64,000 bases of DNA from an uncultured archaeon (GCA_964508365.1 CAZDTP010000016.1:65-64064); one strand, 5' to 3'. Shown: positions 19,453 to 24,699, counted from the stretch's first letter. Notes: generated by a model not told the origin, from the letters alone. Translations and numbers: made by a program.

Positions 19453-20124
19453 TTATTCTACCCCCAAAATAGATTCAGTTGTAATAAAATCTGGTTTTGT
19501 TTTATAGATATAAAAGACAATTAAAGCGGAAATTAGTGCTTCCCCAATACCTATTATGAGATGCCAGAAAACCATAGCAGGAATGGCAATTTCAATTGGA
19601 ATAGCGCCACCAACACCAATCTCGATGCCACAAATGAAAGAAGCCAAGACAATTGCGATGTAAGATCCAATAGCAGTTGCGATTGTCACTTTTAACTCTT
19701 TTTTTAGCGATGTTTTATTAAAAAGCCTTACAAACAATACTACTATATAGAATCCTACAATGCCACCAATTATCCCCATATTGAAGGCATTTGGTCCCAA
19801 CGCGGTAATCCCTCCGTCCCCAAAAAGGCTTTGAATAACTAAAATTAAAAATAATACTATAACGGATGCCCAAGGACCAAGTATAATAGCTACTAAAGTG
19901 CCTCCAACCAAATGACCGGAGGTTCCTCCTGGAACGGGATAGTTAACAAATTGAAACGCAAAAATAACTGCTGCTAATACCCCAATGTAGGGAATCATCT
20001 TTTCAGAATCTTCTTTTTCAAATATTTTGCCCATTCTGAAATATCCAAGAATCATAATAACAATAGTCACAATCCAGAGTACGATAGTTGTTATAGGGTC
20101 TAATAAGCCATCTGGTATATGCAT
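19453..20124 (-). CDS. cbiM: Cobalt/nickel ECF transporter S component
   Basis: MHIPDG N-terminus, PGGTSGHLVGG, GDGGITALG and HLIIGIGEA motifs. Confidence 0.95.
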   Translation of the reverse strand: MHIPDGLLDPITTIVLWIVTIVIMILGYFRMGKIFEKEDSEKMIPYIGVLAAVIFAFQFVNYPVPGGTSGHLVGGTLVAIILGPWASVIVLFLILVIQSLFGDGGITALGPNAFNMGIIGGIVGFYIVVLFVRLFNKTSLKKELKVTIATAIGSYIAIVLASFICGIEIGVGGAIPIEIAIPAMVFWHLIIGIGEALISALIVFYIYKTKPDFITTESILGVE

Positions 20125-20172
20125 TTTTTATTTTCCTATTTTTCTTTATTTTATTATCGATTAATTTTTTTG

Positions 20173-20195
20173 TTATGAATAATATTTTATCATAA
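20173..20195. promoter_or_regulatory. Palindromic candidate metal-regulator operator between divergent cbiM and cbiQ
   Basis: TTATGA-N11-TCATAA inverted repeat. Confidence 0.3.
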
Positions 20196-20330
20196 TTTAG
20201 TATTATTTAAAAACGATATGATAATTTTATAAATTAATATGAAGTATCAATCTGGAGCCATATGAGTTTTATATAAGAAATTATCTTATGGATTTTACTA
20301 ATTAATAGTAAATTAAGGAGATAAAATAAA

Positions 20331-21134
20331 TTGGACATAGAATTACCTTTCAAACACGAAGATGAGAAAAATGCCTTAAATAAAATTCATCCTTTAATTC
20401 GGTTTATTCTTCCGTTTATTTTTGTTATCCCTTTTCTTATTATAAATGACATTTATTTAGTAATTACTATTATTTTAATTGTTCTACTTTTTAATTTGGT
20501 TTTACGTTTACATCTAATAAAGATTTTTTCAAAACTAAAAGCATTAATTCCATTTCTACTTCTTATTACAATTTTTATTCCTTTCTACGTTGGAAACACC
20601 GTATTCTTTCAATTGAACATTGGAATTTCACTAAATATTTATAGTGAAGGATTAGCTTATGCCTTAATTCTATTTTTTCGCATTATAGGGGCGGCATTTG
20701 TATTCTTAACATTTCTAACGTCTTTAACATATTCTGAATTTATTGAAGCATTAACTAAATTAAAAGCTATTCCCCCATTTTTTATAGGTAGTATAGTTAT
20801 CATGCTTCATTACATCCCAATTCTCGCAAAATCTAATAGAAAAGTACTGGAAGCACAAGATTTAAGAGGAAAAAACTTTACATCGTATTGGCAAAGGGTT
20901 AAAACTCATGCGTTTATAATGGGAAAGAATTTAGTACACAATATGGAAAGAAGCGAAATATTATATGAGAGTTTAAAAATGAGGGGATTTTCTGGTAAAA
21001 TTACCTTTTCTTCAAAGAAAATAAAATTAGCGGATATACTAATAGTAATAATGTTTTTGTTTATTGTGATTTCTTTCATCTATTTTGTCAATCTAGAACA
21101 AATATACATGGGGGTTTTACAATTATTTGTCTAA
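20331..21134 (+). CDS. cbiQ: ECF transporter T component
   Basis: HPxxR N-terminus, TM helices, EAQDLRG and ESLKMRGF coupling motifs; SD AAGGAG upstream. Confidence 0.9.
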   Translation: MDIELPFKHEDEKNALNKIHPLIRFILPFIFVIPFLIINDIYLVITIILIVLLFNLVLRLHLIKIFSKLKALIPFLLLITIFIPFYVGNTVFFQLNIGISLNIYSEGLAYALILFFRIIGAAFVFLTFLTSLTYSEFIEALTKLKAIPPFFIGSIVIMLHYIPILAKSNRKVLEAQDLRGKNFTSYWQRVKTHAFIMGKNLVHNMERSEILYESLKMRGFSGKITFSSKKIKLADILIVIMFLFIVISFIYFVNLEQIYMGVLQLFV

Positions 21135-21874
21135 TAGAAGTGGAAAATTTAAATTTTGAGTATAATTCAAATTTTTCTCTTAACGATTTATCGTTAACCA
21201 TAAAAGAAAATTCAATCTATGCTTTAACCGGGAATAACGGGTCTGGTAAAACTACGTTTCTTAGATTATTAGTTGGTTTACTGAAACCTAAATCTGGAAC
21301 TATTAAAATTTTTAACGAAATCTTAACTAGGGATAAAAAACAACTATGGAGACTTAGGCAAAAGATCGGATTTTTATTTCAAAATCCAGACGATCAATTG
21401 TTTGCCCCAACAATAGGAGAAGATGTAGGTTTTGGAGTAAGGAATCTTGGTCTTGAAGAAGCCGAAGTGAATAAAAGAGTTGAATGGGCTCTCAAGGCAG
21501 TTAATTTATCACAATATACTAAAAATTCTCCATATGATTTATCTTGGGGCCAGAAAAAACGAGCTGCTTTAGCAGGATTAATAGTAATGAAGCCTAAACT
21601 ATTAATTTTAGATGAACCCTTCGCGAATCTTGATTTTAAATCAATATATAACCATCTACAGATTTTTAAAACCCTTAAAAAAGAACAAAAAATGACAATT
21701 TTATTTACAACTCATAATCGTTTTTTTATCGAAAATTGGGCAGATAAAATGCTTGTACTAAATGATGGTAAGGTATTATTTGAAGGCATTCCTAAGGATG
21801 GATTAAATCTTCCCAAAATCAAGCAATTATTGGGTTCATATGATGATCTCTTAACTCTAATTAACCAAAAATAA
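21122..21874 (+). CDS. cbiO: ECF transporter ATPase (probable ATT start at 21122; track start GTG 21140)
   Basis: GNNGSGKTT, FQNPDDQLFAPT, LSWGQKKR and LILDEP motifs; reading frame extends upstream as I-I-C-L-I-E-V-E-N-L behind GGGGGT. Confidence 0.9.
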   Translation: MICLIEVENLNFEYNSNFSLNDLSLTIKENSIYALTGNNGSGKTTFLRLLVGLLKPKSGTIKIFNEILTRDKKQLWRLRQKIGFLFQNPDDQLFAPTIGEDVGFGVRNLGLEEAEVNKRVEWALKAVNLSQYTKNSPYDLSWGQKKRAALAGLIVMKPKLLILDEPFANLDFKSIYNHLQIFKTLKKEQKMTILFTTHNRFFIENWADKMLVLNDGKVLFEGIPKDGLNLPKIKQLLGSYDDLLTLINQK

Positions 21875-21944
21875 TTTAATTTTCCACTTAAATTGAATAA
21901 ATTTTTTAACTTGTTTTTTATATTATTACTTGGGAAAATAATGA

Positions 21945-22260
21945 AGGAACACTAGCATATTCGAGGTCGCTTATGATAACCCGTGATTAAGCGTGCAAAG
22001 TTATGCTTACATCCTGAGTTTATTAATCAACAATTTACTGCATCAAAAATGGGCTCTTAATCAAGCTATGGTATTACCGTGCGATGAGATTGGAGTCAGA
22101 CCCAGCATGCAGATATGATTATGCCCCAAAAAGGCATAGAAATTACTGCCTAGCACGAGAGAACTTATTTGATGTTTATGGTATTACCATAAGATGATAA
22201 ATTTGTGTTAGTGTTCTTAGGCAACAATATATGCTGATTAAAACTCTAACCCTTTTTTTT
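21945..22260 (+). ncRNA. Candidate ~300-nt structured non-coding RNA of unknown class
   Basis: 15-bp end-to-end helix 21945-21959/22204-22218 (three G-U pairs on the + strand), internal hairpins, TTTATA at 21917 and a T-tract at 22253-22260; no ORF of 60 aa or more. Confidence 0.6.
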
Positions 22261-22276
22261 AAAAGATGATAGCGAT

Positions 22277-22753
22277 CTATAAAAGACTTATCGAATCAGA
22301 ATTAAAAAGTTCTTTTAATTCTTTATTCATTTCTCCTTGATCTTCTTGTAGATATCTATCCAACACAGAAGAAATCTTTTTTGAGTACTTGTTCATAATA
22401 GCTCTAACGAGCCCTATTTGAATATTTTTATCGGTTGCAATACATAAGATACCCTTCCCAACCTTTAGTGAAAAGATCATACCTTTAGAATATTCAGTTA
22501 TTTGTAAATGTATATTTCCATACCCTAAGATGTATCCTTGTTCCTGGCCAGCTGTAAATACAGCTCCTCCAATTGCTCCTATTTTTTCAACAGAAACATC
22601 TTCTTCGTTAGGAGACTTCAAAATGAATTTTGATTCGCTCATTATAGTAATTCCTGTATCATCTATGACTATAGCGTATTTTAAACCTGGCGTACTATTA
22701 ATAATTTCCTTAAGTATTTTCTTTAAAATGCGTTCATCATTAGAATAACTCAA
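22277..22753 (-). CDS. Roadblock/LC7 (MglB/LAMTOR-like) protein
   Basis: alpha-beta-beta-alpha-beta3-alpha pattern (PGLKYAIVIDDTGITI...IGAIGG...QITEYSKG...IGLVR); SD GGTG 7 nt before TTG. Confidence 0.88.
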   Translation of the reverse strand: MSYSNDERILKKILKEIINSTPGLKYAIVIDDTGITIMSESKFILKSPNEEDVSVEKIGAIGGAVFTAGQEQGYILGYGNIHLQITEYSKGMIFSLKVGKGILCIATDKNIQIGLVRAIMNKYSKKISSVLDRYLQEDQGEMNKELKELFNSDSISLL

Positions 22754-22917: not shown

Positions 22918-23274
22918 TTAGAACAATTCTTGTGCTCGGATTAATGTTTTTAATGGTTTAACTCCATTTTTGTTGTATTTCGATTTTTCGAGTAAAATAA
23001 ATAATTTATACTTTTTCTCTTTATCTATATCGAACTTTAATTGGATCAGATTTGGATCATCTATTATTTCTTTATTCTTTTTATTCTTCGAGATTGCCCA
23101 CAATGCTAATTTGTTTTCATGAATCCAGAGTCGTTTTGAGATATCTGAGCCTATTGTGAATCCATTTTTATCAGTGATAACGCCCGCAACAAAGTTAGGA
23201 AAGTTCTTTTTAATCCTATGTAAAAAATAATTGACCTCAATTTGATTAATTAACCTAATATTTTCCTGTTTCAT
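22918..23274 (-). CDS. Divergent Roadblock/longin-like protein (probable start ATG 23274)
   Basis: LHRIKKNFPNFVAGVITDKNGFTIGS resembles the Roadblock N-terminal half; lies next to a clear Roadblock gene. Confidence 0.55.
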   Translation of the reverse strand: MKQENIRLINQIEVNYFLHRIKKNFPNFVAGVITDKNGFTIGSDISKRLWIHENKLALWAISKNKKNKEIIDDPNLIQLKFDIDKEKKYKLFILLEKSKYNKNGVKPLKTLIRAQELF

Positions 23275-23439
23275 AACAAGTGACCTATCAAAATCAACTG
23301 ATTTATAAATAAAAATTGAAATAAAAAAGTCTTTAATGAGTGTGATATCGTGATAATATTCAATTTCAAATAAATACAATCAACAAAGAAAAATCGGATT
23401 TAGTCTAAAAGAATAAGGTTCTGCTTGTTATCAATAATT

Positions 23440-24411
23440 TTATGATTCTTTTCCTTTAATTCCCAAATCTAGATTTTCTACTAACTCGTTAAATCTATTC
23501 CTAACCGTCACTTCTGTGACTTGAGATGTCTTAGCTATCGCGCGTTGAGTCCTCCGCTCTTTAGCTAATATACTCGCGGCATAAATAGCTGCGGCACACA
23601 CTCCAGTTGGGCCACGTCCAGAGGTAAGTCCTCTTAATTCAGCCATTTTGATTACCTTCTTTGCTAACTTCTGGCACTCAGTGGACAATTCAAGTTCTGA
23701 AACAAAGCGAGTTAGAAAATCTAAGGGTTTAGTTGGGTTTAAATTAAGTTCTAACTCTTTTGAGATAAACCTGTATGATCGCCCTATCTCTTTTTTATTT
23801 ACTCGAGCAACTTCAGCAATTTCGTTTAAAGTACGTGGAACTTTATACATTCTGCAAGCAGCATATAAACTTGCAGCTGCAACACCTTCGATACTTCTTC
23901 CCCGAATAAGGTGAGCTTCAACAGCATCTCTATATATTTTAGCCGAACACTCGCGTAGATTTTTCTGAAGATCGAGATTTGATGCCATTCTATCCAATTC
24001 ACTTAATGCAAAGGTTAAGTTTCTTTCGGTAGCATCTGAGACTCTAATTCTACTCTGCCACTTTCTCAAACGATATATCTGTCCTCTGGTTTTTGCAGAG
24101 ATTTCTTTACCAAAGATGTCTCTATTCTTCCAATCAATCATAGTGCTCAAGCCCTTATCATGGATCATCAATGTCATAGGTGCTCCCGTTCTTGTTCTTT
24201 TCTTTTTTTGATCTGAATCAAAAGCACGCCATTCTGGACCCTGATCTATGTGCTTTTCAGAGTGAACTAGTCCACATTTTTCACATACTAATAAACCTCT
24301 ATTTTCATCAAATAAAATATTCTCACCGCATTCACTGCAATTATTATGATTTCGCATCGTATTTTCTTCTACGAATGCATCGCTTTGATTCCAACTTGAA
24401 ATAAATAACAC
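23440..24411 (-). CDS. tfb: Transcription initiation factor IIB (start uncertain)
   Basis: Zn ribbon CSECG...CEKCG, GPEWRAF, RTGAP...HDKGLST, two cyclin repeats, GRGP. Confidence 0.97.
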
Positions 24412-24450: not shown

Positions 24451-24699
24451 TTATCTCATTTTCGCATAAAAATTGTCATTTGGATTAAATTCCTTCTTTG
24501 GAGAAATTTTCATCGAAATGAATGGTAAATTTACTGGACCAAATATCTCTCTAATAGAACCTATCTCGTCAAATTCTTCAGTAAAAACGGATTTATTAGT
24601 TATCTTTTCTAAACTCGTGTTCCATTTTCTTGCTCTAAAAATCTGATGCTTTTTAGATTCTCCGAGATAATTCAGGTTTAACTTGATATACTTCTGCAA
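24451..24699 (-). CDS. gar1: H/ACA RNP protein Gar1
   Basis: IGSIREIFGPVNLPFI motif and conserved gar1-tfb order. Confidence 0.85.
   Translation of the reverse strand: MQKYIKLNLNYLGESKKHQIFRARKWNTSLEKITNKSVFTEEFDEIGSIREIFGPVNLPFISMKISPKKEFNPNDNFYAKMR

Follow-up and report, generated by a model that had tools for sequence, protein, structure and literature searches.

The closest described systems to the RNA reported here are Pab40, Pf7, Pho40 and Afu4 (HgcG), each of which carries three H/ACA motifs according to the accessible text of Muller et al. 2008 (PMC2377435). The same text reports that motif 1 of Pab40 guides Ψ2588, in vitro and with the modification detected in vivo, and that in vitro motif 3 guides Ψ2016 in the helix-69 loop, a position masked in vivo by a reverse-transcription pause. 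The target of motif 2 is disputed there between the equivalents of Pab 2647 (proposed for Afu4) and Pab 2678; Muller et al. favour the U2586-equivalent site for Afu4 and Pf7, and in P. abyssi itself motif 2 acts at position 1932 (PMC2377435). A related case is sR-h45 of H. volcanii, as presented in the available part of Majumder et al. 2020 (PMC7075261): a single pocket of its SL2 directs both helix-69 pseudouridines, with UNUN left unpaired and the ACA at 17 and 19 nt, and its SL1 makes the U2586-equivalent pseudouridine with 3 and 5 pairs only. The helix-69 uridines are also guided by eukaryotic H/ACA snoRNAs, namely yeast snR191 and human U19 (PMC7075261, same part). For H/ACA geometry, the accessible portion of PMC4652768 gives an ANA distance of 14–16 nt and a stem of 8–11 bp, with 10 pairs in all crystal structures. 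Our literature search turned up no publication on Asgard H/ACA RNAs, which does not disprove that one exists.

The locus described here lies in a window of 64,000 nucleotides, the whole stretch of DNA analysed, from an uncultured archaeon (GCA_964508365.1 CAZDTP010000016.1:65-64064). It holds an RNA gene of ~310 nt on the + strand (21932–22241; RNA position 1 = 21932), which very probably encodes a guide sRNA of the box H/ACA type, with three guide hairpins, and corresponds in Asgard archaea to Pab40/Pf7/Pho40/Afu4 (HgcG). The gene limits are the limits of conservation in three alignments (A1, A2 and A3), with a conserved GGG at the start and conserved sequence stopping near 22241. Upstream, an A-rich/T-rich, BRE/TATA-like block at 21896–21909, ~23–36 nt before the GGG, is conserved, and the upstream regions of 75 relatives anchored on the GGG gave the consensus AAAAA.TTTTTAA at −36 to −24; judging from its sequence, this block is likely the promoter of the RNA gene. 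The initial annotation had pointed instead to TTTATA at 21917–22, which is present and falls in a second conserved AT-rich block at 21914–21929 (3–18 nt upstream of the GGG) that is less well conserved than the BRE/TATA-like block. This second block would fit a start at ~21946, where RNA contigs begin. We kept the RNA start at 21932, upstream of the contig start, because 21936–39 covary with 22018–21.

At the other end, the alignments show a 3' tail at 22227–22260, made up of the family-specific AAUAUAUGCUGAUU and a T8 tract at 22253–60; the RNA contigs stop short of this tail. The T8 tract, which the initial annotation had also listed, is where it was said to be, and it is common only to the source sequence and its closest relative (alignment A1). 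It is a possible terminator in the source genome, and the transcript of that genome may extend to it.

The fold was built by hand and scored on 75 non-redundant full-length sequences (alignment A3). In it, 88.2% of cells pair, compared to 31–42% when partners were slid by 1–3 columns, and the covariation score was 0.243 against at most 0.075 for slid partners. Double-sided changes were found at 42 of the 75 pairs; shuffles gave 27.2, and none of 500 shuffles had as many. Folding of the + strand reached −79 kcal/mol (z = −2.47), with none of 100 shuffles equally good, and folding of the − strand was weaker (z = −1.73, 4 of 100 shuffles equally good). Covariation strongly supports this fold, a series of three box H/ACA hairpins in which a lower stem leads through an internal-loop pocket to an upper stem with a kink-turn or K-loop cap, and an ANA box lies 3' of the hairpin. 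The G and A letters of the kink-turns and K-loop are invariant in alignment A3, as are the ANA A's at 22009/11, 22113/15 and 22226.

The initial annotation had rightly recognised an independently transcribed, structured RNA of this polarity, and it had noticed two near-duplicated modules at 22067–87 and 22177–97 with a weaker third copy at ~21972. The modules are real: each forms a kink-turn cap, one on hairpin 2 and the other on hairpin 3, and the third copy is a GA-containing loop that forms the K-loop of hairpin 1. The helices that it drew fared differently. Its 15-bp helix joining the two ends is present in the minimum-energy fold of the source sequence, but is not conserved across the 75 relatives. 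Scored jointly, this helix, TGATTAAG/CTTAATCA, GCAG/CTGC and TATGCC/GGCATA were 70.8% paired compared to 70.0% in shuffles, and 10 pairs with double changes were counted where 8.2 were expected (77 of 500 shuffles equal), so that composition suffices to account for them. Individually, TATGCC/GGCATA was the one helix to be conserved, 93% paired with no double changes, and the other two short helices had no comparative support; GCAG, proposed as part of an enclosing helix, pairs upstream with CTGC at 22038–41 instead. The proposed search for homologues and covariation did return homologues across Asgard families and strong covariation, but in favour of another fold.

Hairpin 1 (21954–22011) consists of a 6-bp lower stem (21954–59/22002–07), a pocket whose strands are UUCGAGGU (21960–67) and UGCAAAGU (21994–22001), a 6-bp upper stem (21968–73/21988–93), the K-loop at 21974–87 and an ACA at 22009–11; double changes occur in 4 of 6 lower-stem and 6 of 8 upper-stem pairs. 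Hairpin 2 (22038–22115) has a lower stem at 22038–43/22107–12, in which all six pairs show double changes, a pocket at 22044–51 and 22098–22106, and an upper stem in two parts (22052–56/22093–97 and 22059–62/22088–91), the first of which is invariant within the family and covaries in distant homologues. Its kink-turn 2 sets AA 22063–64 opposite GAUGA 22083–87, with a 3-nt bulge and a cap hairpin at 22065–82, and its ANA box at 22113–15 is AUA here and ACA in most relatives. A small linker hairpin follows at 22122–36; its 3' half is deleted in several relatives (e.g. L018–L020), and we therefore regard it as dispensable. Hairpin 3 (22148–22226) has a 9-bp lower stem (22148–56/22211–22) with a 3-nt bulge at 22214–16, a pocket formed by GAGAGAA 22157–63 and UGUUA 22206–10, an upper stem at 22164–70/22199–22205, GA pairs joining 22171–72 with 22196–97, a cap hairpin at 22176–92 and an ACA at 22224–26. 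Both of its stems covary, as in the change of CAC/GUG to CAU/AUG in homologue G184, and its pocket letters are invariant in the family and nearly so in the phylum.

Between ANA box and pocket top, the distance is 14–15 nt in hairpin 1, 15 nt in hairpin 2 and 18 nt in hairpin 3. The last value is beyond the range of 14–16 nt and inside the 17–19 nt that works in the H. volcanii helix-69 guide, as described in the available part of PMC7075261. From pocket to second G:A pair we counted ~10 pairs in hairpin 1, ~12 in hairpin 2, which is slightly long, and 9–10 in hairpin 3.

Two closing helices surround the first two hairpins. Around hairpin 1, closing kink-turn 1 is formed by a 5' half at 21936–21948 (C-stem 21936–39, box C-like AUGAAGG 21941–47, NC stem 21946–48) and a 3' half at 22012–22021 (UCC 22012–14, box D-like CUGA 22014–17, C-stem GUUU 22018–21). 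Its helices are 87–99% paired in the 75 sequences, and G21943 and A21944 of the box C-like element are invariant. The C-stem changes on both sides: at 21939/22018, 43 sequences have C-G, 20 have U-A and 12 have U-G, with none of the 75 unpaired, and at 21936/22021, 46 have A-U and 17 have C-G. The same arrangement is present in homologues from other families of the phylum. Around hairpin 2, UAAUCA 22024–29 forms a 6-bp helix with 22116–21 that is 99.3% paired, with double changes in three of its six pairs (e.g. UAGUCA/UGACUA). As a consequence of the two closing helices, the ANA boxes of hairpins 1 and 2 are placed in internal loops. The two clamps, one of them a box C/D-like kink-turn, probably add a fourth L7Ae site to the RNA. 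We see the closing kink-turn as a small addition to H/ACA architecture.

Proteins of the H/ACA particle are encoded in the same genome: Cbf5 (430.8 bits), Nop10 (57.6 bits), Gar1 (29.3 bits) and L7Ae (81.5 bits) all score at least at their curated cut-offs, the Pfam Gar1 score of 29.3 bits lying exactly at its cut-off. If the RNA behaves as in the established archaeal system, Cbf5 would bind each hairpin through its lower stem and ANA box, L7Ae would bind the kink-turn or K-loop ~10 pairs above the pocket, and Nop10 and Gar1 would complete the particle. The two strands of the internal loop would base-pair with the 23S rRNA sequences flanking a uridine, and this uridine, left unpaired, would be isomerised to pseudouridine by Cbf5. 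The Gar1 gene (24451–24699, − strand) is located 2.2 kb from the RNA gene, after two small Roadblock-like ORFs and TFB. Across loci, the RNA adjoins a 158-aa ORF in 73 of 86, a 153-aa ORF in 67 and CbiO in 55. The block RNA-p158-p153-TFB-Gar1, with Gar1 within 5 kb, was found in 6 of 10 sampled family genomes and in none of 8 genomes outside the family. This proximity of Gar1 reflects family-level synteny and is at most a weak functional hint.

Most of the 23S rRNA is missing from the source genome, where assembly has recovered just the end of the 23S and the final 50 nt of the 16S. For this reason, we read targets on a full 23S from a same-family genome that is 100% complete and carries the RNA, and the search covered that 23S and half a 16S. 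The E. coli numbers used below (U2496, U1915/U1917, U2586 and U2554/2555) are presumed equivalents, assigned from known landmarks. The pairings described are observed as complementarities, and the modifications themselves are predictions; we know of no pseudouridine mapping in any Asgard rRNA.

Pocket 1 offers 4 + 6 Watson-Crick pairs flanking an unpaired UU at 2717/2718 of the same-family 23S, and two further pairs are possible in many relatives. The real rRNA has one occurrence of its exact 12-mer motif, which also turned up in 1 of 60 shuffles. The predicted target of hairpin 1 is U2496 in helix 89 of the peptidyl-transferase region. Pocket 3 pairs through GUUA/UAAC and GAGAG/CUCUC (4 + 5) with both flanks of the helix-69 loop, an arrangement equalled in 3 of 60 shuffles. 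This pairing leaves five rRNA letters unpaired rather than two, and a blind energy scan left the site unranked. Of the 33 order genomes that returned a match to the helix-69 string, 31 have it letter for letter; the remaining two matches are a string of bacterial type from one bin and a sequence with one mismatch that does not resemble rRNA. We predict that hairpin 3 acts on U1915 and/or U1917 of the helix-69 loop in an atypical open arrangement.

The assignment of hairpin 2 is divided between two sites. Across the full 23S, the hybrid energy of pocket 2 is best at the A-loop (−24.3 kcal/mol, UU gap of 2 nt); this energy was equalled by 5 of 60 shuffled rRNAs and is not significant, and the complementarity is lost towards distant homologues. 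On the 3' side of the pocket, the strand AACCC(A) is phylum-wide and complementary to the letters just 5' of U2586. For the 5' strand no convincing U2586 pairing was found, and the 23S held no clean two-sided site for this pocket. The target of hairpin 2 is predicted to be most likely U2586, or else the A-loop at U2554/2555. Blind target scans allowing G-U pairs returned many spurious AU-rich matches, and in the energy-only scan the A-loop site of hairpin 2 was the one site among those of the three hairpins to come first.

The element is single-copy in its own genome. With blastn it was detected in 21 of 24 same-genus genomes (69–98% identity) and in none of 15 from other families. Three invariant blocks, searched for as an exact pattern, occurred once each in 75 of 153 genomes of the order, all of one family, and the reversed pattern, used as a control, had no match in the same 153 genomes. 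A second pattern, run on one genome per prokaryote species, gave 78 matches, made up of 75 true copies, nearly all titled Promethearchaeota or Promethearchaeia, and 3 chance matches without the other motifs. One copy is in a bin titled Nanopelagicaceae, yet is 98% identical to a Loki copy.

The covariance model CM R1, built on RNA positions 1–234 rather than on the full length, scored 242 bits on 21932–22165. It found one copy in 119 of 131 genomes of the Lokiarchaeia family, with all 13 genera represented. With laxer filters it gave full-length matches in 6 of the 18 genomes that belong to the three remaining families of the order (E = 1e-9 to 1e-13), and none in four closed genomes. Outside the family, 33 of 121 genomes matched, from 13 further families of the phylum, always with one full-length copy; these matches were weaker than those inside the Lokiarchaeia family. 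The counts at family, order and phylum level therefore indicate that this is an old, single-copy RNA gene of Asgard archaea.

Among the 22 runs listed as holding part of the stretch, 18 were metatranscriptomes, from salt marsh, soil, sediment and water. Contigs from 4 runs in 4 studies span 21944/46 to 22157/62, with the flanking genes absent, and the best of them have 0–1 differences; one has a depth of 329. Such contigs give presence only, not ends or level, and contig cover is absent for 21932–43 and 22163–22241. The contig with a depth of 329 passes from 22159–62 directly into sequencing adapter, which means that many fragments end inside pocket 3. The ends at 22157–62 possibly reflect a processing site, a reverse-transcription block, or contig breakage at strain variants, and the abundant species in those samples may lack hairpin 3.

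This raises the possibility that the functional molecule is a two-hairpin RNA running from ~21944 to ~22160, with hairpin 3 removed, separate, or a decaying remnant. Contigs from 3 runs in 3 studies share a start at 21944–46 and a stop at 22157–62, one of them running into adapter at its depth of 329, and the largest share of words in any RNA run was 0.55. We nevertheless consider a two-hairpin molecule rather improbable, since hairpin 3 is conserved like the rest, its pocket included, since the 5' letters absent from the contigs covary with 22018–21, and since contigs are no proof of RNA ends and strain variants at 21945 and 22163–66 would break them. It is also unlikely, if a shade less so, that a broader picture holds as a whole, in which a clamped guide with four L7Ae sites and ANA boxes in internal loops is Asgard-wide, pocket 2 of this family has turned towards the A-loop, and the abundant form is perhaps two-hairpin. 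The A-loop site U2554/2555 is pseudouridylated in eukaryotes.

The remaining alternatives concern the class of the RNA. The initial annotation had called it an undescribed class, possibly L7Ae-bound, a guide or a scaffold. Two parts of this description agree with the fold, as the RNA does carry kink-turn (L7Ae-type) motifs and three guide pockets. In support of novelty, the Rfam scan returned nothing at gathering score on the element (the window had two matches, both tRNA), a permissive scan (E up to 10) gave three matches with E of 0.9–9.1, far under the cut-offs, and no Rfam family, HgcG included, matches it; it also has four kink-turn-type motifs and two closing helices unreported in described copies. 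The HgcG model (RF00064, cut-off 77 bits) had no match on the element, and its best score in the genome was 9.3 bits (E = 5.9) elsewhere. However, RF00064 stayed below cut-off in all 14 control genomes too, from which we conclude that it is a narrow model. With all defining H/ACA features occurring three times, two pockets on the known sites of Pab40 motifs 1 and 3, and the initially proposed helices unsupported, a new class of scaffold or guide unrelated to H/ACA RNAs is very improbable; the anatomy and two of the three pockets match the archaeal three-motif box H/ACA sRNA (Pab40/Pf7/Afu4). We regard the element as a known kind of RNA whose variant features are the kink-turn clamp and the second closing helix. 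A large box C/D-type or U3-like RNA, whose 5' box C-like and internal box D-like elements would serve the methylation or processing of rRNA, is scarcely credible. The motifs AUGAnGG and CUGA do make a covariation-supported kink-turn, there is a sub-threshold likeness to sR46 (E = 0.91), and Pyrococcus Pab21 is reported to occur with and without a C/D motif in the accessible text of PMC2377435. But the stretches between the boxes are held in covarying helices (hairpin 1) rather than being free guides of 10–12 nt, U3 and the C/D families all stayed far from threshold, and an additional clamp for L7Ae binding is the simplest view of the motif. The set of boxes C, D', C' and D with free 10–12-nt guides was not found; the box-like letters belong to kink-turn 1 and to the K-loop of hairpin 1.

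Several other assignments were tried and rejected. SRP RNA and RNase P RNA, which the initial annotation had rightly set aside, each have a locus of their own in this genome: SRP RNA on C5 (68.8 bits, full length) and RNase P RNA on C17 (133.5 bits). An end-clamp of C/D type made from the 3' CUGA (22234–37) and the terminal box C was discarded because several subclades have lost this CUGA and the covarying partner is 22014–17, and a kink-turn at AUGAUU (22114–19) because this stretch makes up the ANA box and the 3' half of a closing helix. Bulge-helix-bulge splicing at 22157–59/22214–16 was suggested by an apparent joining contig that is chimeric: it runs on into eukaryote-like large-subunit rRNA (7 metagenome matches, 0 genome matches).

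The reading as a box H/ACA guide explains a conserved orphan RNA that Rfam annotation has missed in well over a hundred Asgard genomes. It carries the prediction that Asgard ribosomes have pseudouridines at helix 89 of the peptidyl-transferase region and at helix 69. Because these sites are common to Pyrococcus and eukaryotes, we take them as an old archaeal trait that implies no special Asgard-eukaryote link. What is contributed here is the family and phylum counts, the covariation test, the covariance model, the test of the initially proposed helices, and the parallel between pocket 3 and sR-h45; a broader family model could be started from the covariance model and the alignment.

Compared with the described systems, the element is like Pab40/HgcG in having ~300 nt and three successive H/ACA motifs that all carry an ANA box and a K-turn or K-loop, and in directing motif 1 to a helix-89 uridine and motif 3 to the helix-69 loop, the equivalence of the sites depending on inferred numbering. 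We infer a constant offset of 92, not stated in the accessible text of PMC2377435, by which Pab 2588/2647/2678 would be E. coli 2496/2555/2586; these values coincide with the sites reached independently from the pockets here. By the same offset, the target of motif 2 appears ambiguous between the same two candidates, A-loop and U2586, as in Afu4/Pf7. Orthology with Pab40/HgcG is most likely, on the basis of architecture and targets, not sequence. Unlike HgcG, the element is missed by RF00064 and is AT-rich, and in a comparison made with Pab40 by its description, the variant here encloses hairpin 1 in a box C/D-like kink-turn and hairpin 2 in a 6-bp helix.

Hairpin 3 resembles SL2 of sR-h45 in its open helix-69 pocket and its long ACA distance (18 nt vs 17 and 19), with five letters left unpaired where sR-h45 leaves four. 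Given SL2, the open geometry and the 18-nt distance are ordinary for helix 69, and the weak pairing of hairpin 2 is less worrying because SL1 works with 3 and 5 pairs. In contrast to the element, sR-h45 has two hairpins, no U2496 guide, and a 56-nt linker in place of the closing helices. Eukaryotic H/ACA guides differ from the element in having no K-turns and in using separate hairpins for the two helix-69 sites. The combination of an H/ACA guide and a box C/D-type kink-turn on one transcript is shared with Pab21/Pf1, as these are presented in the accessible text of PMC2377435.

The guide RNA gene, which encodes a three-hairpin box H/ACA pseudouridine guide sRNA on the + strand, lies 2.2 kb from an 82-aa Gar1 ORF (24451–24699, – strand) whose Pfam Gar1 score of 29.3 bits is exactly the Pfam cut-off. 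Adjoining the Gar1 ORF is TFB (23440–24411, – strand), followed towards the RNA by a 153-aa ORF (22918–23379, – strand) and a 158-aa ORF (22277–22753, – strand). This order, from the RNA through the 158-aa and 153-aa ORFs to TFB and Gar1, was retained in six of ten sampled genomes of the family. Among the 86 RNA loci checked for synteny, the 158-aa ORF stood beside the RNA in 73 and the 153-aa ORF in 67. A Pfam search of these two ORFs returned nothing above threshold for either; the 158-aa ORF showed weak likeness to Roadblock-fold families (MAPKK1_Int, E = 0.0011; Robl_LC7, E = 0.19). Upstream of the RNA lie the cobalt/ECF-type transporter genes for CbiM, CbiQ and an ABC ATPase (19453–21874), with synteny of the ATPase kept in 55/86 loci.

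RNA contigs from metatranscriptome runs X1–X3, which belong to three studies, had near-identical ends and spanned window positions 21944–22162, one of them running on into adapter at 22159–62. The stop at 22159–62 falls inside the guide pocket of hairpin 3 and may reflect a processing site, a reverse-transcriptase stop or an assembly break. In run X4, a 77-nt RNA contig fused the guide RNA (22115–22161) to a eukaryote-like large-subunit rRNA stretch (loci L180–L186). Splicing was rejected as the source of this join, the contig being a chimera of the two RNAs.

The family-specific 3' tail of the RNA, AAUAUAUGCUGAUU (22227–22241), contains a second CUGA; together with the box C-like letters at the 5' end, it could make up an alternative kink-turn. 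This CUGA was missing from several subclades.

A contig titled Nanopelagicaceae bacterium (L078), from a bacterial bin, carries an RNA copy with 98% identity to that of a Loki genome; the contig was probably mis-binned. The sole helix-69 match in the G015 bin (G015:C263:5921–5945) has a stem sequence unlike that of every other genome of the order, and may represent a foreign rRNA contig. Judged against three other Asgard 23S rRNAs, that of genome G170 (L197) carries a ~30-nt insertion immediately on the 3' side of the A-loop, separating the A-loop helix from the conserved block that follows.

On another contig of the window's own genome, the SRP RNA (C5:103671–103994; L021) would be overlooked by standard annotation; its match to the archaeal Rfam model is full-length but reaches 68.8 bits against a gathering score of 96.5.
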